From Escherichia phage vB_EcoM_CUA3, in the sequence record PP410321: 64,000 bases of DNA. One strand, given 5' to 3'. How positions within the stretch are numbered: position 1 is the first letter of the stretch; every line of letters starts with the position of its first letter. Made by a program: the position numbers and the translations under genes. The notes under the pieces were generated by a model. It made no database searches. It had not been told where the DNA came from and was given only the letters and a program-made list of their open reading frames with translations. Positions 3,524 to 16,984 of the stretch are shown here, piece by piece.

Positions 3524-5101
3524 ATGGCAAACTTTAATACAATATTAAGTTTTCTTAAGCCATGGGCTAATGAAGACGAAAAAGAATTTAAACAACAATT
3601 AAATAACAATTTAGAGTCTGTCACTGCACCTAAGCTTGATGATGGCGCTCGCGAAATTGAAACCCAAGAGCAAAATATTCCTTATAACGCTCTTATGCAA
3701 CAAATGTTTGGTAGTAATGAGCCTGAAGTAAAAAACACCAGGGAACTCATTGATACCTACCGTAATTTGATGAACAACTATGAAGTCGATAACGCAGTTC
3801 AAGAAATTGTGTCTGACGCTATTGTCTATGAGGATGATAAAGAAGTAGTTGCATTGAATTTAGACGGGACAGAATTCAGTCAATCAATTAAAGATAAAAT
3901 TTTGGCTGAATTTAGTGAAGTTTTAAACCTTTTAAATTTCCAACGTAAAGGCACTGACCATTTCCAACGTTGGTATGTAGACTCGAGAATATTCTTTCAT
4001 AAAATTATAAACCCTAAAAAAATGAAAGATGGCGTACAAGAGCTTCGACGCTTAGACCCGCGCCAAGTCCAATATATTCGTGAAATCGTTACACGTATGG
4101 AAGACGGCGTTAAAATTGTAGACGGGTATCGCGAGTTTTTCGTTTACGACACAGGCCATGAAAGTTATTGCGCTGATGGACGCATTTATTCAGCCGGGAC
4201 TAAAGTTAAAATTCCTCGTGCTGCGGTAGTTTATGCACATTCCGGATTATTAGATTGTTGTGGTAAAAACATCATTGGCTATTTGCAACGTGCTATTAAG
4301 CCTGCAAACCAGCTTAAATTGATGGAAGACGCAATGGTCATCTACCGTATTACACGTGCTCCCGACCGTCGTGTGTTTTATATCGATACAGGTAATATGC
4401 CTTCTCGTAAGGCGGCAGCACAAATGCAACATATCATGAACACGATGAAAAACCGTGTGGTGTATGATGCTTCGACCGGTAAAATTAAAAACCAGCAACA
4501 TAATATGTCAATGACTGAAGACTATTGGTTGCAACGTCGAGACGGTAAAGCAGTTACAGAAGTTGATACAATGCCAGGTGCTACTGGTATGAGTGATATG
4601 GATGACGTTCTTTATTTCCGCACAGCACTTTACCGTGCGCTGCGTATTCCAGAGTCGCGTATCCCTAGTGAATCTAATTCCGGTGTTATGTTTGATGCTG
4701 GTACGGCTATAACTCGTGATGAGTTGAAATTTGCTAAATGGATTCGTCAGCTCCAAAATAAATTCGAAGAAATTTTCTTAGACCCATTAAAAACAAACCT
4801 CATTCTTAAAAAGATTATTACAGAAGATGAGTGGGAAAGAGAAATAAATAATATTAAAGTTACGTTCAACCGTGATAGCTACTTCAGTGAAATGAAAGAT
4901 GCGGAAATCATGGAACGCAGAATCAATATGCTAACGATGGCTGAACCATTTATTGGTAAGTATATTTCACATCAAACGGCTATGAAAGATTTCCTTCAGA
5001 TGACTGACGAAGAAATTAATCAAGAAGCTAAGCAAATTGAAGAAGAGTCTAAAGAGGCTCGTTTCCAAAACCCAGATGAAGAAGAAGAAGAGGATTTCTA
5101 A
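3524..5101 (+). CDS. 20: portal vertex protein gp20
   Basis: 525-aa ORF, same size and position as T4 gp20 (524 aa), between 19 and 67; acidic C-terminus ...DEEEEEDF. Confidence 0.95.
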
Positions 5102-5376
5102 TGGAAGATTTAATCGAAGCTATTAAATCAAACGACCTCGTAGCAGTTCGTAAAGCAGCAGCCCCGCTTATCGAATCTCGAGTAGCCGCTTTGATTGAAG
5201 CCCGTAAAGCAGAAATTGCTCGCTCCGTTATGATTGAAGGCGAAGAAGCCGACGAAGATGACGAAGACGAAGATAAAGACGAAAAATCCGATAAAGCAGA
5301 TAAGAAAGACAAAAAAGAATCTGACGATGCGGATGAAGGTGATGACGGCGATGATGAAGACGAGGACGACGAATAA
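5101..5376 (+). CDS. 67: prohead core protein gp67 with extended acidic C-terminal tail
   Basis: 91-aa ORF start-overlapping gene 20 stop; very acidic tail; position between 20 and 68. Confidence 0.85.
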
Positions 5377-5804
5377 TGTTCCTTATCCCTGATGATTACG
5401 AATTAACTCTAGAAAGTGTAGAGGCCAAAATTCCAGAAGCACAGGGACGTTTTGCTACTCTTTCTGAAGCCCTCGAGAAAAGCGATATAAATAATCTTGT
5501 AGAGAACATGATTGCTGATGGCGATATTGATACAGCTATTGCCATCGCCTCTTTGAATGAAAATATGGCTCTTAACGAATTTATTGTTAAGCACGTTTCT
5601 TCTAAAGGTGAGCTTACTCGTACTAAAGATATTAAAACCCGTCAACGCAACGCTTATCAAACGACCGGGTTGTCTAAAGCAAAACGCCGTCAGATTGCTC
5701 GCAAAGCATCTAAAACCAAACGTGCTAATCCGTCTACTCAAGTACGTGCTGAACGTAAGCGTAAGAAAGCTCGTTCTAAACGTAAAGCCTTTGGACTTAA
5801 CTAA
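5376..5804 (+). CDS. 68: prohead core protein gp68
   Basis: 142-aa ORF with basic C-terminus, ATGA-type overlap with gene 67 and with gene 21; T4 synteny. Confidence 0.85.
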
Positions 5805-6439
5805 TGAAACCTGAATTGCTCATCGAACATTGGGGACAACCAGGTGAAATTATCGATGGGGTTCCAATGTTGGAATCTCATGATGGAAAAGATTCTGGAC
5901 TTGCCCCAGGCCTTTATATAGAAGGCATATTCATGCAAGCCGAAGTGGTTAACCGTAATAAACGCCTTTATCCAAAACCTATTTTGGAAAAAGCTGTTGC
6001 CGATTATATGGCAGAACAGGTTGCTACTAAACAAGCTTTAGGAGAATTAAATCATCCGCCTCGTGCTAACGTTGACCCTATGCAAGCCGCTATTATTATT
6101 GAAGATATGTGGTGGAAAGGTAATGACGTTTATGGACGTGCTCGTATTATTGAAGGCGACCATGGTCCTGGTGATAAACTAGCTGCTAATATTAGAGCCG
6201 GTTGGGTACCTGGTGTTAGTTCTCGTGGTCTAGGTTCTTTAACTGAAACCAACAAAGGATATAAGCGTGTAAACGAAGGTTATAAATTAACCGTCGGTGT
6301 TGATGCAGTATGGGGACCATCTGCTCCTGATGCTTATGTAACTCCTAAACAAATTACAGAATCACAAACGGTAGATACCGATACCAGTGCCGATGACGCC
6401 TTTATGGCTCTCGCAGAGGCCATGAAAAAAGCGTTATAA
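5804..6439 (+). CDS. 21: prohead core scaffold protease gp21
   Basis: 211-aa ORF (T4 gp21 is 212 aa) between 68 and 22. Confidence 0.93.
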   Translation: MKPELLIEHWGQPGEIIDGVPMLESHDGKDSGLAPGLYIEGIFMQAEVVNRNKRLYPKPILEKAVADYMAEQVATKQALGELNHPPRANVDPMQAAIIIEDMWWKGNDVYGRARIIEGDHGPGDKLAANIRAGWVPGVSSRGLGSLTETNKGYKRVNEGYKLTVGVDAVWGPSAPDAYVTPKQITESQTVDTDTSADDAFMALAEAMKKAL

Positions 6440-6442
6440 ATA
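6435..6442 (+). promoter_or_regulatory. late promoter TATAAATA for gene 22
   Basis: Exact TATAAATA overlapping gene 21 stop, about 28 nt before gene 22 ATG. Confidence 0.55.
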
Positions 6443-6469
6443 TTATTATCTAAACAACAGGACTACAAA

Positions 6470-7285
6470 ATGCTTAAAGAACAACTGATTGCTGAAGCAC
6501 AGAATATTGATGCTTCCGTTGCTCTTGACAGTATTTTCGAATCAGTTAATATTTCTCCGGAAGCAAAAGAAACTTTCGGCACTGTATTCGAAGCTACCGT
6601 CAAGCAACACGCCGTTAAACTGGCTGAATCTCACATCGCTAAAATCGCTGAAAAAGCGGAAGAAGAAGTTGAGAAAAATAAAGAAGAAGCTGAAGAAAAA
6701 GCCGATAAGAAAATCCAAGAAGCTGCCGGTCGTTTCCTTGACCACGTCGCTAAAGAATGGATGGCTGAAAACCAGCTGGCTGTTGATAAAGGTATTAAAG
6801 CCGAACTGTTCGAATCCATGTTGATGGGTATGAAAGAACTGTTTGTTGAACACAACGTGGTTGTTCCAGAAGAAGCAGTAGACGTTGTCGCTGAAATGGA
6901 AGAAGAACTTCAAGAGCAGAAAGATGAAACCGCTCGTCTGTTCGAAGAAGTTGGTAAGCGCGATGCGTATATTAATTACGTACAGCGTGAAGTTGCGTTG
7001 ACTGAAGCAACTAAAGACCTGACTGAATCTCAGAAAGAAAAAGTTAGTTCTCTGGTAGAAGGCATGGATTATTCCGATGCATTTGGTAAAAAAATTGGCG
7101 CTATCGTTGAAATGGTTAAAGGCCAGACCGACGTTGAAAAACCAATCACCGAAGCCGCTATAAATAAAACTGAAGACGATGCTGCAGCACTGAATTATAT
7201 TTCGGAAGCAGTTGAAGAAAAAGGCGCTAAGCCTACCCTGTCCTTCGCGGACCTGTCTGCAATCGCAGCATCACGAATTTCTTAA
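6470..7285 (+). CDS. 22: major prohead scaffolding core protein gp22
   Basis: 271-aa highly acidic, E/K/A-rich coiled-coil-like ORF; position before gene 23. Confidence 0.93.
   Translation: MLKEQLIAEAQNIDASVALDSIFESVNISPEAKETFGTVFEATVKQHAVKLAESHIAKIAEKAEEEVEKNKEEAEEKADKKIQEAAGRFLDHVAKEWMAENQLAVDKGIKAELFESMLMGMKELFVEHNVVVPEEAVDVVAEMEEELQEQKDETARLFEEVGKRDAYINYVQREVALTEATKDLTESQKEKVSSLVEGMDYSDAFGKKIGAIVEMVKGQTDVEKPITEAAINKTEDDAAALNYISEAVEEKGAKPTLSFADLSAIAASRIS
7159..7166 (+). promoter_or_regulatory. candidate late promoter TATAAATA inside the 3' end of gene 22
   Basis: Exact TATAAATA about 140 nt upstream of gene 23 ATG; unusually far, so tentative. Confidence 0.35.
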
Positions 7286-7306
7286 TTTAATAAGGTTATA
7301 CAACAC

Positions 7307-8866
7307 ATGAAAAAGAATGCATTAGTTCAAAAATGGTCCGCTCTGCTGGAAAACGAAGCTCTTCCTGAAATCGTTGGTGCTTCTAAACAAGCTATCATCG
7401 CTAAAATTTTCGAAAACCAGGAACAAGACATCCTGACTGCTCCGGAATATCGTGACGAAAAAATCTCCGAAGCATTTGGTTCTTTCTTGACCGAAGCTGA
7501 AATCGGCGGTGACCACGGTTATGATGCTACCAATATCGCAGCTGGCCAGACCTCTGGTGCTGTAACTCAGATTGGGCCGGCAGTAATGGGTATGGTTCGT
7601 CGTGCTATTCCTCATCTGATTGCTTTTGATATTTGTGGTGTTCAGCCTCTGAATAACCCTACCGGCCAGGTATTTGCACTGCGTGCAGTATATGGTAAAG
7701 ACCCTATCGCTGCTGGCGCTAAAGAAGCTTTCCACCCGATGTATGCTCCAAATGCTATGTTCTCTGGTCAGGGTGCTGCTCAGACTTTTGAAGCACTGGC
7801 TGCAAGTAAAGTTCTGGAAGTTGGTAAAATTTATTCTCACTTCTTCGAAGCTACCGGTTCTGCACACTTCCAGGCTGTTGAAGCTGTAACCGTTGATGCT
7901 GGCGCTACTGATGCCGCTAAACTGGATGCTGCTGTAACCGCTCTGTTGGAAGCTGGTCAGTTGGCTGAAATCGCTGAAGGCATGGCTACTTCTATCGCTG
8001 AACTTCAGGAAGGCTTTAATGGTTCTCAGGATAACCCGTGGAACGAAATGGGCTTCCGTATCGATAAACAAGTTATCGAAGCTAAATCCCGTCAGCTGAA
8101 AGCAAGCTACTCCATCGAACTGGCACAGGACCTTCGTGCAGTACACGGTATGGATGCAGATGCTGAACTGTCCGGTATCCTTGCTACCGAAATTATGCTC
8201 GAAATCAACCGTGAAGTTATCGATTGGATTAACTACTCTGCACAGGTTGGTAAATCTGGTATGACCAACACCGTTGGCGCTAAAGCTGGTGTGTTTGACT
8301 TCCAGGACCCGATTGATATCCGTGGTGCTCGTTGGGCCGGTGAAAGCTTTAAAGCTCTCCTGTTCCAGATTGATAAAGAAGCAGCCGAAATCGCTCGTCA
8401 GACCGGTCGTGGTGCTGGTAACTTCATCATCGCTTCCCGTAACGTAGTTAACGTACTGGCTGCAGTTGATACTTCTGTAAGTTATGCAGCTCAGGGTCTT
8501 GGTCAAGGTTTCAACGTTGACACCACTAAAGCAGTATTTGCCGGTGTTCTTGGTGGTAAATATCGCGTTTACATTGACCAGTATGCACGTTCCGATTACT
8601 TCACTATCGGTTATAAAGGCGCTAACGAAATGGACGCAGGTATCTACTACGCTCCGTACGTTGCACTGACCCCGCTGCGTGGTTCCGATCCGAAGAACTT
8701 CCAACCGGTAATGGGCTTCAAAACTCGTTACGGTATCGGTATCAACCCGTTTGCTGACCCAGCTGCTCAGGCACCTACCAAACGTATTCAGAATGGTATG
8801 CCGGACATCGTTAACAGCCTTGGTCTGAATGGTTACTTCCGTCGTGTTTATGTTAAAGGTATCTAA
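7307..8866 (+). CDS. 23: major capsid protein gp23
   Basis: 519-aa ORF (T4 gp23 521 aa) with strong high-expression codon bias; conserved blocks recalled from T4 gp23. Confidence 0.97.
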   Translation: MKKNALVQKWSALLENEALPEIVGASKQAIIAKIFENQEQDILTAPEYRDEKISEAFGSFLTEAEIGGDHGYDATNIAAGQTSGAVTQIGPAVMGMVRRAIPHLIAFDICGVQPLNNPTGQVFALRAVYGKDPIAAGAKEAFHPMYAPNAMFSGQGAAQTFEALAASKVLEVGKIYSHFFEATGSAHFQAVEAVTVDAGATDAAKLDAAVTALLEAGQLAEIAEGMATSIAELQEGFNGSQDNPWNEMGFRIDKQVIEAKSRQLKASYSIELAQDLRAVHGMDADAELSGILATEIMLEINREVIDWINYSAQVGKSGMTNTVGAKAGVFDFQDPIDIRGARWAGESFKALLFQIDKEAAEIARQTGRGAGNFIIASRNVVNVLAAVDTSVSYAAQGLGQGFNVDTTKAVFAGVLGGKYRVYIDQYARSDYFTIGYKGANEMDAGIYYAPYVALTPLRGSDPKNFQPVMGFKTRYGIGINPFADPAAQAPTKRIQNGMPDIVNSLGLNGYFRRVYVKGI

Positions 8867-8882
8867 GACCTAACCTTATTAT

Positions 8883-8900
8883 GGGAGACTTCGGTCTCCC
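8883..8900 (+). terminator. rho-independent terminator after gene 23
   Basis: GGGAGAC-TTCG-GTCTCCC perfect hairpin followed by T-rich ATTCTTGTTTCTG. Confidence 0.7.
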
Positions 8901-9247
8901 ATTCTTGTTTCTGTACNNNNNNNNNNNNNNNNNNNNNNNNNNNNNNNNNNNNNNNNNNNNNNNNNNNNNNNNNNNNNNNNNNNNNNNNNNNNNNNNNNNN
9001 NNNNNNNNNNNNNNNNNNNNNNNNNNNNNNNNNNNNNNNNNNNNNNNNNNNNNNNNNNNNNNNNNNNNNNNNNNNNNNNNNNNNNNNNNNNNNNNNNNNN
9101 NNNNNNNNNNNNNNNNNNNNNNNNNNNNNNNNNNNNNNNNNNNNNNNNNNNNNNNNNNNNNNNNNNNNNNNNNNNNNNNNNNNNNNNNNNNNNNNNNNNN
9201 NNNNNNNNNNNNNNNNNNNNNNNNNNNNNNNNNNNNNNNNNNACCTT

Positions 9248-9255
9248 TATAAATA
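9248..9255 (+). promoter_or_regulatory. late promoter TATAAATA for gene 24
   Basis: Exact TATAAATA about 30 nt upstream of ATG 9284, just after the masked block. Confidence 0.55.
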
Positions 9256-9283
9256 AACATATACCCTCAATAAGGAAAGCGCA

Positions 9284-10567
9284 ATGGCAAAGATTAACGA
9301 ATTACTGCGCGAGTCAACAACTACTACCAGCAACTCATTGGGTCGCCCTAATCTTGTTGCTTTGACCCGTGCTACCACTAAACTAATTTATCGCGATATC
9401 ATCGCTGAACAACGTACAAACCAGCCTATCGCTGCATTGTATGGTGTCAAATATCTTACTCCTGATAATGAATTTAGCTTCCAAACCGGCGCCGTTTATG
9501 GCGGTGAAGTTGGTGCTAAAGACCGCGAAACCATTCCAGAATTAACAGATAAGTCCCAGGCGATTGCCAAGGGTGACTACTTTAAGTATCAGAATGTGGT
9601 TTATAAGGCTCTTGAATCAAGCCCTCTCGCATCTACTAGCGCTACAGGATTGGCTGATGCTCTTCAAGAAGGTTTGGTGTCATTAACATGTCGTCTGGTT
9701 CCGGACGCTGCTCATACCACTAAATTCGAAGAGAGTGATGTAGAAATCTCTGATGCCGTATTCCAGGTTAATAAATGGAATGCCCCTGTTAAGACTCGTA
9801 AATTGAAGACTGCTTTGACAGTAGAATTGGCCCAGGATATGGAATCAAATGGCTTCGACGCCCCTGCATTCTTAGAAGACCTCCTGGCCACAGTAATGGC
9901 AGATGAAATTAATAAAGACGTTCTTCAATCCTTGATTACGGTATCCAAACGTTATAAAGTAACTGGTGTATCCGATAACGGCATTATAGATTTGACTTAT
10001 GCCAGTGCCCCAGAATCTGCACGTAAACTTTATGAAATTGTTTGTGAGATGAATTCTGAAATCCAGAAAACTACTTCTTATTCTGGCACGTTTGTTGTGG
10101 CTTCAAGTCGTGTAGCTGCAATGCTTGCAGGTTCTGGCTGGTTAAAACATAGACCTGAAGATAATAATTGGCTCCCAGAAACTGCCTATGGTTATTTGTT
10201 GAATGGATTACCTCTGTTCTGTGATGTTAACAGCCCATTGGATTATGTTATCGTCGGTGTTAAAGAGAACTATGGTGGTAATGAAGTTGTCGGTTCTATT
10301 TTCTATGCCCCGTATACAGAAGGCCTAGATTTAGATGACCAAGAACACGTTGGTGCTTATAAGGTTATTGTCGACCCGGATTCATTACAGCCTTCTATTT
10401 CTCTGATGGTTCGTTATGCACTTTCGGCTAACCCATACACCGTAGCTAAAGACGATAAAGAAGCTCGTGTTATCGATGCAACCAATATGGATTTAATGGC
10501 TGGTCAGAGTAATATGTCTTATCTGCTTGGTGTTAAACTTCCAGCAATTATTTACGAGGCTGATTAA
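9284..10567 (+). CDS. 24: capsid vertex protein gp24
   Basis: 427-aa ORF, same length as T4 gp24; N-terminus MAKINELLRESTTT and the YAPYTEGLDLDD...ANPYTVAKD blocks recalled from T4 gp24. Confidence 0.95.
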   Translation: MAKINELLRESTTTTSNSLGRPNLVALTRATTKLIYRDIIAEQRTNQPIAALYGVKYLTPDNEFSFQTGAVYGGEVGAKDRETIPELTDKSQAIAKGDYFKYQNVVYKALESSPLASTSATGLADALQEGLVSLTCRLVPDAAHTTKFEESDVEISDAVFQVNKWNAPVKTRKLKTALTVELAQDMESNGFDAPAFLEDLLATVMADEINKDVLQSLITVSKRYKVTGVSDNGIIDLTYASAPESARKLYEIVCEMNSEIQKTTSYSGTFVVASSRVAAMLAGSGWLKHRPEDNNWLPETAYGYLLNGLPLFCDVNSPLDYVIVGVKENYGGNEVVGSIFYAPYTEGLDLDDQEHVGAYKVIVDPDSLQPSISLMVRYALSANPYTVAKDDKEARVIDATNMDLMAGQSNMSYLLGVKLPAIIYEAD

Positions 10568-11850
10568 TGTCTAAGATTATAGACCTAATTAAAGAATCCA
10601 CACTGACGGCTGCCAACTCGGTTGGCCGTCCTGCTCTTCTTTCATACACCCAAGCAACTAATAAAAGAATCTTTAAAGCCTTAGTTGCCGAACAAAAAAC
10701 AAGCCAACCTGTTGCCGCTCTGTACGGGGTTCGTGTACTTAATCCTGACGACAAAATGACTTATATTGGTGGCGCTACATTTGCAGGCCAGATTGGTATG
10801 TCGGAACGTGAAAATATTCCTGAATTTACTGATTCGTCTACAGCTTATGCAGCAGGTGATATGTTCCAGTTTGAAAGTGTAGTGTTTAAAGTTCTGGAAG
10901 CATCTCCTTTCGCCGGAACCACAGAAACCGACCTCGGTGAAGTTATTTCTGAAGCAGTGGCCGCTGGACATATTCGTATGGTATCAGATGCTGCTATTAC
11001 TTCTAAATTCGAACAAGGCCATCCTGAAATTGCTGAAGCAGGCTTCCGTATTGATAAATGGCAATCTGAAGTTAAATCACGTAAATTGAAAACTTCGTTG
11101 ACAGTTGAATTGGCCCAAGACCTAGAATCAAACGGGTTTAATGCTCCTAATTTCGTTGAAAATCTGCTAGGAATTCAAATGGCAGAAGAAATTAATAAGG
11201 ACGTATTACAGTCATTAATTACGGTTAGTTCTCGTTTTAAAGTCCAAGGTGTTTCTGAAAAGGGTGTATTAGACCTTACCAACCCACGTTACGATAATGC
11301 CCAGGACCGTGCTCGTACACTATATTATTACATGTGTGAGATGAACTCTGCCGTCCAACGTCAAACTTCTTTCGCTGGGACTTATGCAGTAGCTAGTTCT
11401 CGTTGTGCTGCTATTCTCGCCGCTTCCGGTTGGGTTGAGAAAAAGGAAGACCAAGACGAACTGGCTTATGGTGTATTAAAGAACGGCCTGCCACTTTATG
11501 CTGATATGAATAGTCCATGTGATTATGTTATTGTTGGTGTGAATGCTCAGATGGGTGAAGGACAGACGGTCGCATCTTTATATTATGCGCCTTATACGGA
11601 AGGTTTGAATGTGGTTGATGAAGAAGGTGATACTTCAGTAGGTGAATTTAAGGTTATTGTTGACCCTGAAAGCTTACAACCTACAGTAGCATTGCTTGCT
11701 CGTTATGCATTGACTGCAAACCCTTATACCGTCGCTAAGGACGATAAAGAAGCCCGCATTATTGATGGCTCTGATATGGACAAAATGGCTAACCAAAGCC
11801 AATTGAGTTCTTATCTTGGTGTTAAACTTCCACCTTTAGANANAAANNNA
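10567..11850 (+). CDS. second gp24-like capsid vertex paralog; 3' end falls in masked bases, end approximate
   Basis: ORF start overlaps gene 24 stop (TAATG); roughly half the residues are shared with the first copy, including VAALYGV, KSRKLKT..TVELAQD, YAPYTEGL and ANPYTVAKDDKEAR. Confidence 0.85.
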
Positions 11851-11853
11851 AAA

Positions 11854-11869
11854 GGGACCTCACGGTCCC
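11854..11869. terminator. bidirectional hairpin terminator between convergent gp24-paralog and rnlB
   Basis: GGGACC-TCAC-GGTCCC hairpin with flanking A/T runs on both sides. Confidence 0.65.
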
Positions 11870-11877
11870 TTTATTGT

Positions 11878-12885
11878 TTATTTGGATACTAATTCAATCC
11901 ATACAGCTCGTAGCGTATCTTTAACACACTCAATGAGCTGCTTTTTAACTTCAACAGGATTTTCGGCATCGGTTAATTCTAATTCTTCACGGGCCGCTTC
12001 TTCCAAAATATCTTGGACCGTCAGTCCCATTACCTTTCCAAAATCTTTAGGTGATACTTCACCAATCTTACTGATAACATTGTTAATACGGTTAACAGTC
12101 ACATAATCAGTGAATTGCCACATCAAGTCCATATCGTCTTGGGACAATACCACTGCAACTTTAATAGGCTTGTCAGACTTTTTCTTCTCGCTGAATTTAG
12201 AGTTCTTACATTTAATCGCTACACGATTTCCATTAGGAAGCCAGATTGGAACATCAGGTTTCAGTACAAAGCCTTCAGCCGTAAATACTTTACCTTCAAC
12301 CTTAGGAATAAAATCAGTCGAGTTAGCAATGGTTAAACCTGCATTATCCACTGCAAAATTATAATCTGGGATAACAGAATCAAAATCATTTGGAAGTTTA
12401 ATAAGGTCTTCAAAGCTACCTGTGGCTAAGCATGGAGCAACCTTAAACTTATGGATAATACAGAAAGCTTCCATAAGGGTATCAGTTAGAACAGATTCGG
12501 TGCCATCTTCTTTAGTAACACGGATATCAAATACATAAAAGTCTTTATCGCCGTAATCCACATTCTTCTGGATACCTGTACCAGCGAACTCACCATAAAT
12601 TTGATATGACTGATAATTAATAGATTCGATTAGATGTTGAACAGATTTAATAGAATCAGCATAGTTCTTAAGTACGATTTCATAGCCGTAGAAATCTTCA
12701 GCAGGGAGAATTGGTCCGGTGCGCTTGGCGCATGTGACTGCGTCACGTTCTATGATTAAACTAAAGTTGGTTCCATGAATCTTCTCACGTGCTACCCATT
12801 CACCGCCAGTCAAACCATTAATACGGAGTTTTTCAATAAACTTATTGTTGTAGTGGTTTTCCAGACTGCTATATTTCTTGAACAT
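11878..12885 (-). CDS. rnlB: RNA ligase 2 (Rnl2)
   Basis: 335 aa from ATG at 12883-12885; [13 protein letters not shown]...[10 protein letters not shown] (lysine nucleotidyltransferase motif I KxHGxN) recalled from T4 Rnl2; masked bases begin immediately upstream. Confidence 0.93.
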
Positions 12886-15613
12886 ANNNNNNNNNNNNNN
12901 NNNNNNNNNNNNNNNNNNNNNNNNNNNNNNNNNNNNNNNNNNNNNNNNNNNNNNNNNNNNNNNNNNNNNNNNNNNNNNNNNNNNNNNNNNNNNNNNNNNN
13001 NNNNNNNNNNNNNNNNNNNNNNNNNNNNNNNNNNNNNNNNNNNNNNNNNNNNNNNNNNNNNNNNNNNNNNNNNNNNNNNNNNNNNNNNNNNNNNNNNNNN
13101 NNNNNNNNNNNNNNNNNNNNNNNNNNNNNNNNNNNNNNNNNNNNNNNNNNNNNNNNNNNNNNNNNNNNNNNNNNNNNNNNNNNNNNNNNNNNNNNNNNNN
13201 NNNNNNNNNNNNNNNNNNNNNNNNNNNNNNNNNNNNNNNNNNNNNNNNNNNNNNNNNAATCACCATAATAAATATAATTAAATAGAAGAGTTAGTATTCT
13301 TCTGTCACCAAGCCAAATGGTTTAACGGAAGGACCTAGACCCATTATAACACATCTAAATTTAAAGCATATTACTTTGAACCAGAACGCGCTTTGCGCCG
13401 AACCTTATTGNNNNNNNNNNNNNNNNNNNNNNNNNNNNNNNNNNNNNNNNNNNNNNNNNNNNNNNNNNNNNNNNNNNNNNNNNNNNNNNNNNNNNNNNNN
13501 NNNNNNNNNNNNAATTTTTTAGCAATATCAATAAAATTCATACCAGATTCATGTAAAAAATGTACTTTAATCTTATCCATAACAATTCTCTTGTNNNNNN
13601 NNNNNNNNNNNNNNNNNNNNNNNNNNNNNNNNNNNNNNNNNNNNNNNNNNNNNNNNNNNNNNNNNNNNNNNNNNNNNNNNNNNNNNNNNNNNNNNNNNNN
13701 NNNNNNNNNNNNNNNNNNNNNNNNNNNNNNNNNNNNNNNNNNNNNNNNNNNNNNNNNNNNNNNNNNNNNNNNNNNNNNNNNNNNNNNNNNNNNNNNNNNN
13801 NNNNNNNNNNNNNNNNNNNNNNNNNNNNNNNNNNNNNNNNNNNNNNNNNNNNNNNNNNNNNNNNNNNNNNNNNNNNNNNNNNNNNNNNNNNNNNNNNNNN
13901 NNNNNNNNNNNNNNNNNNNNNNNNNNNNNNNNNNNNNNNNNNNNNNNNNNNNNNNNNNNNNNNNNNNNNNNNNNNNNNNNNNNNNNNNNNNNNNNNNNNN
14001 NNNNNNNNNNNNNNNNNNNNNNNNNNNNNNNNNNNNNNNNNNNNNNNNNNNNNNNNNNNNNNNNNNNNNNNNNNNNNNNNNNNNNNNNNNNNNNNNNNNN
14101 NNNNNNNNNNNNNNNNNNNNNNNNNNNNNNNNNNNNNNNNNNNNNNNNNNNNNNNNNNNNNNNNNNNNNNNNNNNNNNNNNNNNNNNNNNNNNNNNNNNN
14201 NNNNNNNNNNNNNNNNNNNNNNNNNNNNNNNNNNNNNNNNNNNNNNNNNNNNNNNNNNNNNNNNNNNNNNNNNNNNNNNNNNNNNNNNNNNNNNNNNNNN
14301 NNNNNNNNNNNNNNNNNNNNNNNNNNNNNNNNNNNNNNNNNNNNNNNNNNNNNNNNNNNNNNNNNNNNNNNNNNNNNNNNNNNNNNNNNNNNNNNNNNNN
14401 NNNNNNNNNNNNNNNNNNNNNNNNNNNNNNNNNNNNNNNNNNNNNNNNNNNNNNNNNNNNNNNNNNNNNNNNNNNNNNNNNNNNNNNNNNNNNNNNNNNN
14501 NNNNNNNNNNNNNNNNNNNNNNNNNNNNNNNNNNNNNNNNNNNNNNNNNNNNNNNNNNNNNNNNNNNNNNNNNNNNNNNNNNNNNNNNNNNNNNNNNNNN
14601 NNNNNNNNNNNNNNNNNNNNNNNNNNNNNNNNNNNNNNNNNNNNNNNNNNNNNNNNNNNNNNNNNNNNNNNNNNNNNNNNNNNNNNNNNNNNNNNNNNNN
14701 NNNNNNNNNNNNNNNNNNNNNNNNNNNNNNNNNNNNNNNNNNNNNNNNNNNNNNNNNNNNNNNNNNNNNNNNNNNNNNNNNNNNNNNNNNNNNNNNNNNN
14801 NNNNNNNNNNNNNNNNNNNNNNNNNNNNNNNNNNNNNNNNNNNNNNNNNNNNNNNNNNNNNNNNNNNNNNNNNNNNNNNNNNNNNNNNNNNNNNNNNNNN
14901 NNNNNNNNNNNNNNNNNNNNNNNNNNNNNNNNNNNNNNNNNNNNNNNNNNNNNNNNNNNNNNNNNNNNNNNNNNNNNNNNNNNNNNNNNNNNNNNNNNNN
15001 NNNNNNNNNNNNNNNNNNNNNNNNNNNNNNNNNNNNNNNNNNNNNNNNNNNNNNNNNNNNNNNNNNNNNNNNNNNNNNNNNNNNNNNNNNNNNNNNNNNN
15101 NNNNNNNNNNNNNNNNNNNNNNNNNNNNNNNNNNNNNNNNNNNNNNNNNNNNNNNNNNNNNNNNNNNNNNNNNNNNNNNNNNNNNNNNNNNNNNNNNNNN
15201 NNNNNNNNNNNNNNNNNNNNNNNNNNNNNNNNNNNNNNNNNNNNNNNNNNNNNNNNNNNNNNNNNNNNNNNNNNNNNNNNNNNNNNNNNNNNNNNNNNNN
15301 NNNNNNNNNNNNNNNNNNNNNNNNNNNNNNNNNNNNNNNNNNNNNNNNNNNNNNNNNNNNNNNNNNNNNNNNNNNNNNNNNNNNNNNNNNNNNNNNNNNN
15401 NNNNNNNNNNNNNNNNNNNNNNNNNNNNNNNNNNNNNNNNNNNNNNNNNNNNNNNNNNNNNNNNNNNNNNNNNNNNNNNNNNNNNNNNNNNNNNNNNNNN
15501 NNNNNNNNNNNNNNNNNNNNNNNNNNNNNNNNNNNNNNNNNNNNNNNNNNNNNNNNNNNNNNNNNNNNNNNNNNNNNNNNNNNNNNNNNNNNNNNNNNNN
15601 NNNNNNNNNNNNN

Positions 15614-16984
15614 ATGAATAATTCTACCGTTACGAGATTCTTGTACATCAACCTCTGGATAATCGGCGACCATTTTTTGAAGAGTATAGCGATGGAGATA
15701 ATATTCACTATCAGGGTCATCAGTTTTCCAGTCTTTACCTTCAAGTGTCATTTTCTGGATTTCATCCATAACCCACCAACCAGCCCAAATATAAGCTGAA
15801 TTACGAACAGGAAGTGGATGTACATAAGGTAGTTCACCGTCAGGAACAGGAGCCACTTTAGCAGTAATTGTTACATTACCTGTTTTTTTGACCGTCACTG
15901 GGTTATAATCGGTTGCGGAAACCGCAACAGAAACTTCAATAACCTGCGAACCTTCAGCACTTGTATCGATTGCCAAAGTATCCGTGGTGCCTGCAACAGG
16001 TGAACCATCTTTCTTCCAAGAATATGCAAAAGTAGCACCAGCAGGGGCACCGGCTACGGTAGCTTTAAAAGAAGCTGGAATTCCTTCAGAGACATTAATA
16101 GACGGTGGCGTTAAGTTAACAGAAACACCCGTCATAGTCTTTTTAGTAATTGTTACACTTCCTGTTTTGGCAACGGTTAAATCTTTATAATCCGCACCTG
16201 TTAGGACTACCGAAACTTCAATAGAGTAAGAACCTATTGTAGATGTATCGACAGCAAGAATATTGCTGCTTTCGCCTGGAATAATAGAACCATTTTTCTT
16301 CCAAGAATAAGTTGCATTTACACCGGAAGGAGCGCCGATTACATCCGCTTTAAACTGTGCAGATGAGTCTTTCTCTGTACTAATTGAGGCCGGCGTTAAA
16401 GTAACAGAAACACCTGACAAAGTTTTCTTAACAAAAGTTACAGCAGCACCTTTAGTAGCGGTAGCCGAATTATATTCAGGGGCAGTAACGGTAACTTCAC
16501 AGTTCAAAGTGTAATTTGCTTCTGCTGCTTCAGTTATGGTAATAGTTTTACCTGTTTGACCTGATATTACGCTAGTGTTACGTTTCCAAACATAAGCGAT
16601 TGTTGCACCGGAAGGAGCACCTGTTACGTTAGCAGTAACAACCTGAGATTGGCCAATTTCTTTAGAAACGGAAGTAGGGTCTAAGGCCAAAGAAATGGTC
16701 NNNATGGTCTTATTAACTACGGTGACTTCAAAAGTATCTTCAGCTACCTCAGGTTCGCCTTCAGCTGGAGTAGAAGTTGCTACTACCTTTAAAACTTTCT
16801 TACCAGCCGGAGCCGCACCGGTATATTTCAAAACATTGGTTGCCTCTGGATTAGAAGCACCGCCAACGGTCCATACATATGTAATGGTTCCTTCTACAGC
16901 TGCACCTGTTGCGGTAGCAGTGTAGTTGGCACTTTCGCCTATTTTTATAGACGCAGCACCGGCTATACTTACAGTAAAAGCCAT
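15614..16984 (-). CDS. hoc: Hoc outer capsid decoration protein, four Ig-like modules plus capsid-binding domain; 3' end masked
   Basis: From ATG at 16982-16984; four roughly 90-aa repeats then ELPYVHPLPVRNSAYIWAGWWVMDEIQKMTLEGKDWKTDDPDSEYYLHRYTLQKM, recalled as matching the T4 Hoc C-terminal domain; the CDS runs into N-mask at 15613. Confidence 0.9.

Follow-up and report, generated by a model that had tools for sequence, protein, structure and literature searches.

A conserved tandem pair of gene 24 homologs, probably an ancient late operon for two capsid vertex proteins, in Escherichia phage vB_EcoM_CUA3

The stretch of DNA analysed here (64,000 nucleotides of Escherichia phage vB_EcoM_CUA3, record PP410321; hereafter the window) contains two full-length gp24 genes, which lie head to tail in the same orientation and are of equal length. 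In the program-made list of open reading frames, both were found on the plus strand, at positions 9284-10567 (24a, 427 amino acids) and 10567 to about 11850 (24b). The stop codon of 24a and the start codon of 24b share one base in the sequence TAATG (10565-10569). Over their full length, the two proteins show 56% identity and 77% similarity (E = 7e-180), which exceeds chance level by far. 24a is 71.5% and 24b 56.4% identical to T4 gp24. A preliminary description of the locus had claimed two complete gp24-like frames with overlapping stop and start, the first one resembling T4 gp24 and the second one being a diverged paralog, and had set them against a single gene 24 in T4; these claims were borne out.

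The frame of 24b extends mechanically to 11892 in the list because the stop codon falls in the masked letters ananaaannn (11841-11850). In an alignment to phage JS10 (97% column identity), the visible letters fit GATAAAAACTAA, corresponding to D-K-N-stop, and the C-terminus reads ...LPPLDKN-stop. 24b thus ends at 11850, comprises 427 amino acids like 24a, and is neither truncated nor frameshifted. The boundaries 9284-11850 of the preliminary description are therefore right, and the resequencing of the masked end that it had proposed is dispensable, since the alignment suffices.

The gene order of the head cluster is 20-67-68-21-22-23-24a-24b, followed by the convergent gene rnlB, and the pair occupies the position that characterizes the gp24 family. 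A foreign composition of 24b was ruled out, as its GC content (0.42 in both genes) and codon usage equal those of 24a. The codon adaptation indices relative to gp23 (0.447 for 24a, 0.426 for 24b) are uninformative with regard to expression.

Upstream of 24a, an exact match to the T4-type late promoter motif TATAAATA is located at 9248-9255 on the plus strand and is predicted to serve both genes; its activity as a late promoter is deduced from the knowledge of T4 late promoters. A second copy of TATAAATA was absent from both strands between 9256 and 17684. The motif also precedes the 24a start by approximately 30 nt in JS10, JS98, VR7, CF-SP2 and F48, and it is present upstream of the single gp24 gene in T4, MM02, P479 and Kp5N. 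A separate promoter for 24b was considered and rejected: no late-promoter motif lies between the genes, and the region contains six sigma-70-like matches, while 6.1 were expected by chance. As read from the sequence, 24a is preceded by the Shine-Dalgarno sequence AAGGA (9272-9276, plus strand), and the ribosome-binding context (A)AGGAAAGCGCA-ATG is kept in all six two-copy genomes compared. The corresponding GAGG of 24b (10556-10559, plus strand) lies within the final codons of 24a. The window, JS10, JS98, VR7 and CF-SP2 all have it 7 nt ahead of the 24b ATG; the F48 version is weaker. The unit ends with a predicted intrinsic terminator (11851-11872, plus strand), a hairpin common to the convergent rnlB, for which the terminator scan gave a 9-bp stem with five G-C pairs, a loop of four and a T-rich tail. 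An equivalent hairpin follows 24b in six of six genomes and the single gp24 gene in T4, MM02, P479 and Kp5N. Hence each locus checked has a single late promoter, a 24b start coupled to 24a and a single terminator, and the layout would be that of an operon in which the late promoter is followed by 24a, a translationally coupled 24b and the terminator. Both proteins would accordingly be late products.

Both proteins match Pfam PF07068, the T4 gp24 capsid vertex protein family (HK97 fold with insertion domain), over the entire length (E ~1e-97; 24a E = 4e-98). In comparison to PDB sequences, 24b matches the solved structure of T4 gp24 (1YUE) over residues 1-423 (E = 5e-151), whereas gp23 reaches only ~1e-11; the two proteins of the window are full-length homologs that are clearly nearer to gp24 than to gp23. 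The N-terminus of 24a, MAKINELLRE↓ST, contains LRE↓ST, the same as the T4 gp21 cleavage site, and that of 24b, MSKIIDLIKE↓ST, contains an I-x-E motif; I-x-E↓ST is kept in all six 24b sequences compared. A predicted gp21 prohead-protease site motif, (L/I)-x-E↓S-T, is thus present at residue 10 of both proteins, and gp21 would probably trim both after Glu10.

24b is the derived copy of the pair. A signature of 13 residues (T4 numbering: L25, S26, N32, R34, F36, R56, V57, F72, F108, Q244, V261, F267 and Q335) was obtained by comparing 11 b-type with 19 a/T4-type sequences (consensus ≥90%), and 24b holds the derived state at each of these sites. The 24b of the window, which was itself part of the set, carries 13/13. 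Residues that distinguish the paralogs include Leu/Arg34, Tyr/Val57 and Glu/Gln335, and 24b has specific insertions of three residues behind T4 residues 239 and 354. Eight of the 13 residues lie within T4 residues 25-72 (Fisher p = 1.2e-5).

The window is 95.7% identical to JS10 DNA over 9284-11900 and represents a JS10-like Dhakavirus; at the protein level, the identities are 97.7% (24a) and 99.5% (24b). The tandem pair as such is not new. It is annotated as 24a/24b in JS98, JS10 and IME08, as 24(1)/24(2) in VR7 and as vertex protein I/II in VR5, and the tandem duplication is already in print for phages S16 and Melville. With the pair in GenBank since the JS98/JS10 records, the discovery value is small. 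What this analysis adds is the age of the split, the selection on both copies, the shared expression signals, the derived state of 24b, its probable loss in the T4 group and the cassette swap in SP18-type phages. The primary paper on JS98 (Zuber et al. 2007, J Bacteriol) reportedly covers the JS98 genome together with a structural proteome. Full-text searches of the literature retrieved no virion proteomics, cryo-EM or genetics concerning the two copies of any two-copy phage.

The pair was present in about 120 of 1418 T4-like phage records, i.e. in roughly one out of twelve, and is characteristic of Dhaka-, Gapriver-, Gelderland- and Marfaviruses. A gp24 gene directly precedes 24b in all GenBank-derived genomes (6/6), IMG/VR loci (16/16) and deeper metagenomic loci (5/5) inspected. 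In the 16 IMG/VR loci, 24b begins at a distance of -4 to +1 nt from the 24a stop, GenBank annotations are within the same range, and the window, like each locus compared, shows a 24a-type gene followed at this spacing by an intact 24b-type gene. Both frames are intact (422-432 amino acids) at each locus where both are fully readable. A phage with a lone 24b-type gene was found neither in the phage collection, nor in IMG/VR, nor among those homolog-search matches whose context was read.

In neighbor-joining (NJ) trees, the a- and b-type sequences form two superclades with 100% support each and a mirrored internal topology, and the copies of the window fall into the respective clades, likewise with 100% support each. 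T4 gp24 nests inside the 24a clade; the grouping of 24a with T4-type gp24 has 100% NJ support. In the best maximum likelihood (ML) tree, b is the sister of the T4-containing a-superclade. The ML analysis was a home-made implementation (Gonnet-derived rate matrix, +F, four gamma categories, fixed candidate topologies), and its homogeneous model leaves some room for artefacts of the long 24b stem. A topology in which the T4 group diverged before the duplication was rejected (delta lnL 43.4, SH p = 0.010, RELL 0.002). The trees indicate that the duplication is ancient and that the split predates the radiation of T4, RB69-type phages and Karamvirus. The position of the single T4 gp24 inside the 24a clade makes a secondary loss of 24b in the T4 group most likely.

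The preliminary description had implied a recent, lineage-specific duplication in JS98/JS10-like phages, after which the second copy diverged rapidly. The genes are indeed adjacent, co-oriented and equally long, and a and b have some states in common that are absent from T4 (AEQ at 41-43, ESNGF, DVLQ). Nevertheless, a placement of b as sister of the crown 24a clade was rejected (delta lnL 55.2, SH p = 0.001, RELL 0.0001), and so was b as sister of 24a plus the SP18 type (delta lnL 33.9, SH p = 0.009). A recent origin would moreover require a 5.6-fold longer b stem (0.49 vs 0.088), pairs are present in four named genera and in FBB1-like phages, their a and b trees mirroring each other, and synonymous divergence between the two copies has reached saturation (pS ~0.7 in six of six genomes). 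We regard this scenario, which the NJ bootstrap also contradicts, as extremely improbable. Ongoing gene conversion between the copies was also considered, and the saturated sites of the six genomes gave no sign of it.

A different origin of 24b, namely capture from a distant T4-like phage at about the depth of Jiaodavirus and insertion beside the resident gene, was suggested by a smaller data set of 21 taxa, which grouped 24b weakly with Jiaodavirus (55% NJ; best ML tree by ~1 lnL unit). 24b is 62.6% identical to Jiaodavirus gp24 vs 56% to 24a. Furthermore, cassette exchange occurs at this locus, and homing endonucleases are found in the gp23-gp24 spacer of T4 and MHG19. When the FBB1-like pairs were added, however, the best ML tree had b as sister of the whole a-superclade and Jiaodavirus outside; the grouping of b with Jiaodavirus was 3.3 lnL units worse, a difference at which it is not rejected. 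The mirrored subtrees, the lack of a lone 24b-type gene in the collections searched and the matching composition of the two genes also speak against a capture, which we therefore consider improbable.

The most plausible course of events would be one tandem duplication before the separation of the lineages of T4, RB69-type phages, Karamvirus, Kanagawavirus, Dhakavirus, Gaprivervirus, Gelderlandvirus, Marfavirus and the Erwinia-phage-FBB1-like phages. The 24b stem would then have changed about three times faster than that of 24a (ML stem lengths 0.333 vs 0.109 substitutions per site), with strong purifying selection on both copies since. The pair was presumably retained in several lineages, and the T4 group, EcS1 and the SP18-type Gapriverviruses probably lost 24b.

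Both genes are under strong purifying selection, with dN/dS among orthologs of 0.04-0.15 for 24a and 0.02-0.08 for 24b. This bears on the question of whether the virion requires or employs only a single product, the second copy being a spare kept, for example, as insurance or for dosage. A single gp24 is sufficient for T4, EcS1 and SP18-type phages, the gp23 of the last being 98% identical to that of the window, and at least two to three losses of 24b can be counted. A spare should decay, yet both frames are intact, dN/dS stays ≤0.15 over divergences with saturated synonymous sites, and the derived residues of 24b are fixed and clustered. This pattern favours a role of its own, under selection, over a mere dosage effect, and redundancy appears improbable as well. 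The preliminary description had also offered a bypass-type redundancy. In T4, the byp24 substitutions N381S, N384S, A387T and K420R of gp23, with the accessory V99I and A295V, allow gp23 pentamers (PMC10580926, PMC9546572). None of them occurs in the gp23 of the window, which has V99, A295, N381, N384, A387 and K420 as in wild-type T4. A natural bypass-type gp23 is thus ruled out at all known byp24 positions, and the idea finds no support in gp23.

It might be assumed that 24b acts outside the vertex, for example as an assembly factor or portal-proximal component, or by decoying a capsid-sensing host defence. The fast stem branch and the derived signature residues would be in line with this. 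The same applies to the faster divergence of the gp24 genes in Dhakaviruses, where the window and JS98 share 76-87% nucleotide identity for these genes vs 94-98% for gp23, which could reflect an arms race. Against such a role, 24b is still full-length with all domains alignable to 1YUE, and it has kept its place in the late operon as well as the protease site and the C-terminal LGVKLP motif; to our knowledge, no defence system is documented to sense gp24. A role outside the vertex is thus very improbable. Both copies are most likely processed vertex proteins, and both would enter the head as vertex pentamers. Altogether, an account in which a conserved two-gene late vertex operon comprises 24a and its ancient paralog 24b, both likely being vertex proteins, is probable.

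How the two proteins are arranged, for which the preliminary description had suggested mixed or specialised vertices, can be stated only tentatively. In T4, 55 gp24* subunits form 11 vertices without significant conformational differences (PMC9546572). Cleavage removes the first 10 residues of gp24, residues 11-20 of gp24* extend to the neighbouring hexamer (PMC9546572), and residues 26-29 pair with an I-domain linker belonging to the next subunit of their own pentamer (Fang et al. 2022, PMC9546572). Separate homopentamers of 24a and of 24b are a possible arrangement, favoured because the residues changed in 24b are concentrated in the N-terminal segment and in I-domain linker 1, whose T4 counterpart latches neighbouring subunits within one pentamer. 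Mixed pentamers of both proteins are also conceivable, as coupled translation from one mRNA provides both at the same time and place, and their constant pairing would suit obligate partners. However, two kinds of subunit cannot share a five-fold ring symmetrically at a fixed ratio. In addition, 24b is changed in both probable halves of the latch (25-36 and 56-72), as would be expected for a self-matched interface. Moreover, in JS98, 24b groups with VR7 24b but 24a with JS10 24a; the genes recombined independently between Dhaka- and Gapriverviruses and can therefore recombine apart, so that the pair is not tightly co-adapted. Mixed pentamers thus seem unlikely, although all of these arguments are indirect.

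Homopentamers would raise the possibility that 24a and 24b form two chemically distinct five-fold vertices at defined positions of the prolate shell, the one-protein set of T4 being a secondary simplification. This remains speculative and somewhat doubtful. If it were so, C5 symmetry would sort the 11 non-portal vertices into three sets, one at the distal apex, five at the distal shoulder and five proximal to the portal, and copy ratios of 5:50, 25:30 or 30:25 would be expected. The heads of SP18-type phages with a single gp24, together with the uniform T4 vertices, imply that the lattice does not demand two vertex proteins. The puzzle is that strong selection maintains two vertex proteins in about one-twelfth of the sequenced T4-like phages, while T4 and some near-identical relatives need one. 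Different vertices for 24a and 24b would represent a simple natural positional coding in a prolate capsid, which would bear on head-length determination and on the engineering of T4-type capsids. gp24 has been called a recent, easily bypassed addition (Rao & Black 2010, PMC3012670); the probable loss of 24b in the T4 lineage would qualify this remark, as the vertex family would have undergone an old duplication and then a loss.

In comparison to the known pairs of JS10 and JS98 (Dhakavirus) and of VR7 and VR5 (Gaprivervirus), the locus, gene order, spacing, flanking gp23 and convergent rnlB are the same; there is no substantive difference, and the window represents another isolate of the same kind. 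CF-SP2 (Gelderlandvirus) also has a one-base gene overlap, its a copy being 87% and its b copy 84% identical to those of the window. S16 and Melville possess the same paralog pair in a different genus and host, and their publication records the duplication without an analysis of age or function.

T4 gp24, known from the structures 1YUE, 5VF3, 7VS5 and 8GMO, is a single vertex protein and the ortholog of 24a, with an identical cleavage site and the same layout of promoter and terminator; T4 lacks 24b, and its genes 23 and 24 are separated by segD, a homing endonuclease gene. gp24 itself is described as a derivative of gp23 (Majewska et al. 2023, PMC10580926; Rao & Black 2010, PMC3012670). This older duplication likewise produced a tandem capsid-gene copy of which one was specialised, and gp23, 24a and 24b all match PF07068. 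gp23 and gp24 share ~21% identity and have demonstrated separate roles in hexamers and pentamers, whereas 24a and 24b share 56%, any division of labour between them being hypothetical.

The SP18 type (SP18, P479, MX01, KIT01, AnYang and others; some Gapriverviruses) has the same genomic slot, promoter and terminator as the window, but a single gp24 gene, whose product is 69% identical to 24a and 55% to 24b. A 24a-24b fusion by unequal crossing-over was considered for P479/SP18 gp24 and rejected, as its C-terminus is a-like (IDATNMDLMAG...) and the 69% a / 55% b identity holds along the entire length. Identity between VR7 and P479 is 92-100% as far as the gp24 start, drops to 57-78% over gp24 and rnlB, and returns to 84-95% from gene 24.2 onwards. 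This pattern indicates that the SP18-type gp24 was exchanged as a cassette together with rnlB, and 24b would have been lost there by replacement of the entire cassette. The swap provides ready natural controls for experiments.

Downstream of a T4-type head-gene cluster (gp20, gp67, gp68, gp21, gp22 and gp23; 3524-8866), the window carries two long ORFs on the same strand, 24a (9284-10567, + strand) and 24b (10567-11850, + strand; 427 aa), and the 24a stop codon overlaps the 24b start codon by one base (TAATG, 10565-10569). The preliminary description had placed two complete gp24-like ORFs head to tail with overlapping stop and start at 9284-11850, and these coordinates are right. The two proteins are 56% identical and 77% similar over their full length (E = 7e-180), and both match Pfam PF07068 end to end. 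Identity to T4 gp24 (tblastn) is 71.5% for 24a and 56.4% for 24b, in agreement with the earlier assignment of the first ORF as T4-gp24-like and the second as a diverged paralog. 24b matched the sequence of the T4 gp24 crystal structure (1YUE) over residues 1-423 (E = 5e-151) and gp23 with just ~1e-11. For the masked letters 11841-11850, the visible bases agree with GATAAAAACTAA in the JS10 alignment (97% column identity); the end of 24b was therefore read as ...LPPLDKN with the stop at 11848-11850, and the second copy is neither truncated nor frameshifted there. A 24b ORF extending to 11892 was rejected as an artefact of this masking.

The tandem pair is real and already known from databases and in print. 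The DNA of 9284-11900 showed 95.7% identity to Escherichia phage JS10 and several other Dhakaviruses and was matched over at least 80% of its length by 89 phage records. The genes are annotated as '24a' and '24b, gp24 head vertex protein' in JS10, JS98 and IME08, as '24(1)' and '24(2)' in VR7 and as 'capsid vertex protein I / II' in VR5; the pair also occurs in Gelderlandvirus CF-SP2 and Marfavirus F48. By tblastn with either protein 1418 phage records were matched, and the matching places exceed the records by about 120, which implies that roughly 120 records hold two copies. The analysis adds modest points: how old the duplication is, the loss of 24b inferred for the T4 lineage, the clustering of signature positions in 24b and the SP18-type cassette swap.

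24b is a conserved, selected gene and not a decaying duplicate. A gp24 gene lies directly upstream of the 24b-type gene in six of six GenBank-derived genomes, 16 of 16 IMG/VR loci and all five more distant metagenomic 24b loci (one being a sequenced relative of Erwinia phage FBB1). Both ORFs are intact (422-432 aa) at all loci where both are readable in full, and among orthologs dN/dS (Nei-Gojobori) ranges over 0.04-0.15 in 24a and 0.02-0.08 in 24b. Within one genome, synonymous sites are saturated between the two genes (pS about 0.7), and thus this comparison gave no sign of recent gene conversion between them. GC content and codon usage are similar in both. The prohead-protease motif at residue 10 reads L-R-E|S-T in 24a, as in T4, and I-x-E|S-T in all 24b sequences compared.

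The T4-type late-promoter motif TATAAATA is found upstream of 24a (9248-9255, + strand), with no further copy on either strand before 17685 and no promoter motif between 24a and 24b. The ribosome-binding site of 24b, GAGG (10556-10559, +), lies within the final codons of 24a, and a hairpin terminator (11851-11872, +) comes after 24b, which shares it with the convergent rnlB. Together with knowledge of T4, a promoter before 24a only, the internal position of the second ribosome-binding site and the terminator after 24b suggest that the pair would form one late transcription unit with coupled translation. TATAAATA and an AGGA ribosome-binding site upstream of 24a are kept in all six two-copy genomes compared, and likewise upstream of the single gp24 of T4, MM02, P479 and Kp5N; GAGG is kept in five of the six. 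The spacing between 24a and 24b is -4 to +1 nt in 16 IMG/VR loci, and GenBank annotations fall within the same range. Over the whole window TATAAATA occurs 16 times (5.0 ± 2.2 expected by chance), including nine + strand copies in the first 9.3 kb, where they precede head and neck genes.

Trees of both copies were built, and alternative placements were compared with a maximum-likelihood evaluator written for the purpose (Gonnet-derived rate matrix, empirical frequencies, four gamma categories, optimised branch lengths). In a first data set of 23 sequences, the 24a clade (98.7% support) was nested among gp24 of T4, RB69-type (MM02), Karamvirus and Kanagawavirus, and the 24b clade (100%) lay outside this whole group. 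Placing 24b as sister to 24a was 55.2 lnL units worse (SH p = 0.001) and as sister to 24a plus the SP18 type 33.9 units worse (p = 0.009). Searching a large protein collection brought in 24b-type proteins with identities as low as 66-70%, among them one of the two vertex proteins of Erwinia phage FBB1, and their contigs again carried the tandem pair. The data set extended with such proteins (35 sequences) resolved a- and b-type sequences into two superclades (NJ support 100% for both) with a mirrored internal order: FBB1-like basal, then Marfa-, Gelderland-, Gapriver- and Dhakavirus. The a-superclade also takes in the single-copy vertex proteins of EcS1, Kanagawa-, Karam-, Moon-, Mosig- and Tequatrovirus as well as the SP18 type, all nested within it; one copy each was confirmed for EcS1 and phiR1-RT. 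In the best maximum-likelihood tree b is sister to the entire a-superclade, with Jiaodavirus and Tegunavirus outside; a T4 group outside the duplication was rejected (delta lnL 43.4, SH p = 0.010, RELL 0.002). On the simplest reading of these trees, the gene would have been duplicated in tandem once, long ago, the pair then inherited vertically, and 24b lost two to three times later; we infer one of these losses on the line leading to T4. That 24b is a xenolog is unlikely but formally possible, as joining b with Jiaodavirus costs just 3.3 lnL units. No phage with a lone 24b-type gene was found among phage records, in IMG/VR or at the homologue loci inspected.

After the split, the stem of 24b is about 0.33 substitutions per site long and that of the a-type about 0.11. 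At thirteen positions all b-type sequences differ from all a/T4-type ones (at least 90% consensus), and since the outgroup majority agrees with a/T4 at every one of them, 24b is the derived copy. Eight of these changes fall in T4 residues 25-72 (V25L, A26S, T32N, L34R, Y36F, K56R, Y57V, Y72F; 15-fold enrichment, Fisher p = 1.2e-5). In T4 prolate-head structures, gp24* residues 26-29 form a beta-strand that pairs with an I-domain linker from the adjacent subunit of the same pentamer; linker 1 comprises residues about 60-81 (Fang et al. 2022, PMC9546572). From the signature cluster and these contacts it may tentatively be proposed that 24b re-tuned the inter-subunit latch of the pentamer, and that pentamers of 24b alone would then be favoured over mixed ones; the proposal is weak, because the paper does not specify whether residues 26-29 pair with linker 1 or with the other linker. 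In both clades variation is greatest in the surface-exposed insertion domain (residues 82-142; mean identity 0.64 in 24a, 0.72 in 24b).

Both members of this ancient conserved pair are likely to encode structural vertex proteins that are made late and processed by a protease. As to how the eleven vertices are shared, 24a and 24b might form separate homopentamers at defined or random vertices, the tentatively favoured arrangement, and mixed pentamers, which a re-tuned latch would disfavour, appear unlikely. All 55 gp24* subunits of T4 adopt essentially one conformation (PMC9546572), so that geometry alone does not demand two vertex proteins. In gp23 of the window, every known vertex-bypass position, where substitutions let gp23 form pentamers, keeps the wild-type residue, and by analogy with T4 the phage would still need a vertex protein. 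The preliminary interpretation is partly supported: it stands for the two gp24 genes, one T4-like and one diverged; gp23 lends no support to bypass-type redundancy. Plain redundancy of the two proteins seems improbable for this selected pair, and a role of 24b away from the vertex very improbable for a protein matching 1YUE almost throughout. As gp24 contributes to the resistance of T4 to acid, heat and proteases (PMC10580926), it is a reasonable idea that a second vertex type might widen environmental robustness.

The window also encodes a Hoc-like outer capsid protein (about 15600-16984, minus strand) that comprises four to five Ig-like repeats, each about 95 aa long, and a C-terminal capsid-binding-like domain. 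The listed 1148-aa ORF (13538-16984) is artificially lengthened across a long masked stretch; JS10 is annotated there with two 'hoc' genes and a 'tail fiber-like protein'.

Within the head cluster of Dhakaviruses (window 7307-12886), divergence is greatest in the two gp24 genes and exceeds that of their flanks. Nucleotide identity between the window and JS98 is 76-87% in the gp24 genes, 94-98% in gp23 and about 90% in rnlB, and is lowest in the 5' third of 24b (10584-11183). JS98 24a groups with 24a of the window and JS10 (98.7% bootstrap) and JS98 24b with that of Gaprivervirus VR7 (98%), so the two genes can recombine apart; the comparison of 9284-11850 with JS98 and VR7 indicates recombination between or within 24a and 24b across genera. 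Between genes 23 and 24 the content of the spacer varies (8917-9242 in the window, masked). A small minus-strand ORF occupies it in JS10 (L001 5633-5899), JS98 and VR7; T4 has the homing endonuclease SegD there (L006 2239-2910), Yersinia phage MHG19 a different homing endonuclease (L013 1247-1909), Acinetobacter phage AM101 a nuclease/acetyltransferase (L014 480-1907) and phiR1-RT a 504-aa ORF (L039 1904-3418). It is speculation that such a homing endonuclease could drive co-conversion of the adjoining gp24 cassette. FBB1-like and related uncultured phages carry two extra plus-strand genes between 24b and rnlB (L033 2676-4506; L034 4890-6427; L037 2634-4140), whose products are about 330-350 aa (a faint collagen-repeat match in one) and about 165-280 aa; the window lacks both genes.

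A single SP18-type gp24 is present in about 19 records, including SP18, P479, MX01, KIT01 and AnYang, and is just 69% identical to 24a and 55% to 24b. The gp23 of P479, in contrast, is 98% identical to that of the window and of VR7. Between VR7 and P479, nucleotide identity is 92-100% from gp22 through gp23 and the spacer to the gp24 start, drops to 57-78% over gp24 and rnlB and returns to 84-95% from gene 24.2/24.3 onward, which shows exchange of the vertex gene(s) with rnlB as a cassette. VR7 (L003 2500-6100) carries 24a-24b-rnlB and P479 (L007 3000-5320) a single SP18-type gp24 with rnlB, with the left breakpoint at the gp24 start and 9284-12886 as the window equivalent. As this exchange took place beside a nearly identical gp23, the gp23 lattice does not force the two-protein state, and the SP18-type phages with their single gp24 are a natural control for the two-copy state of the window and its relatives.
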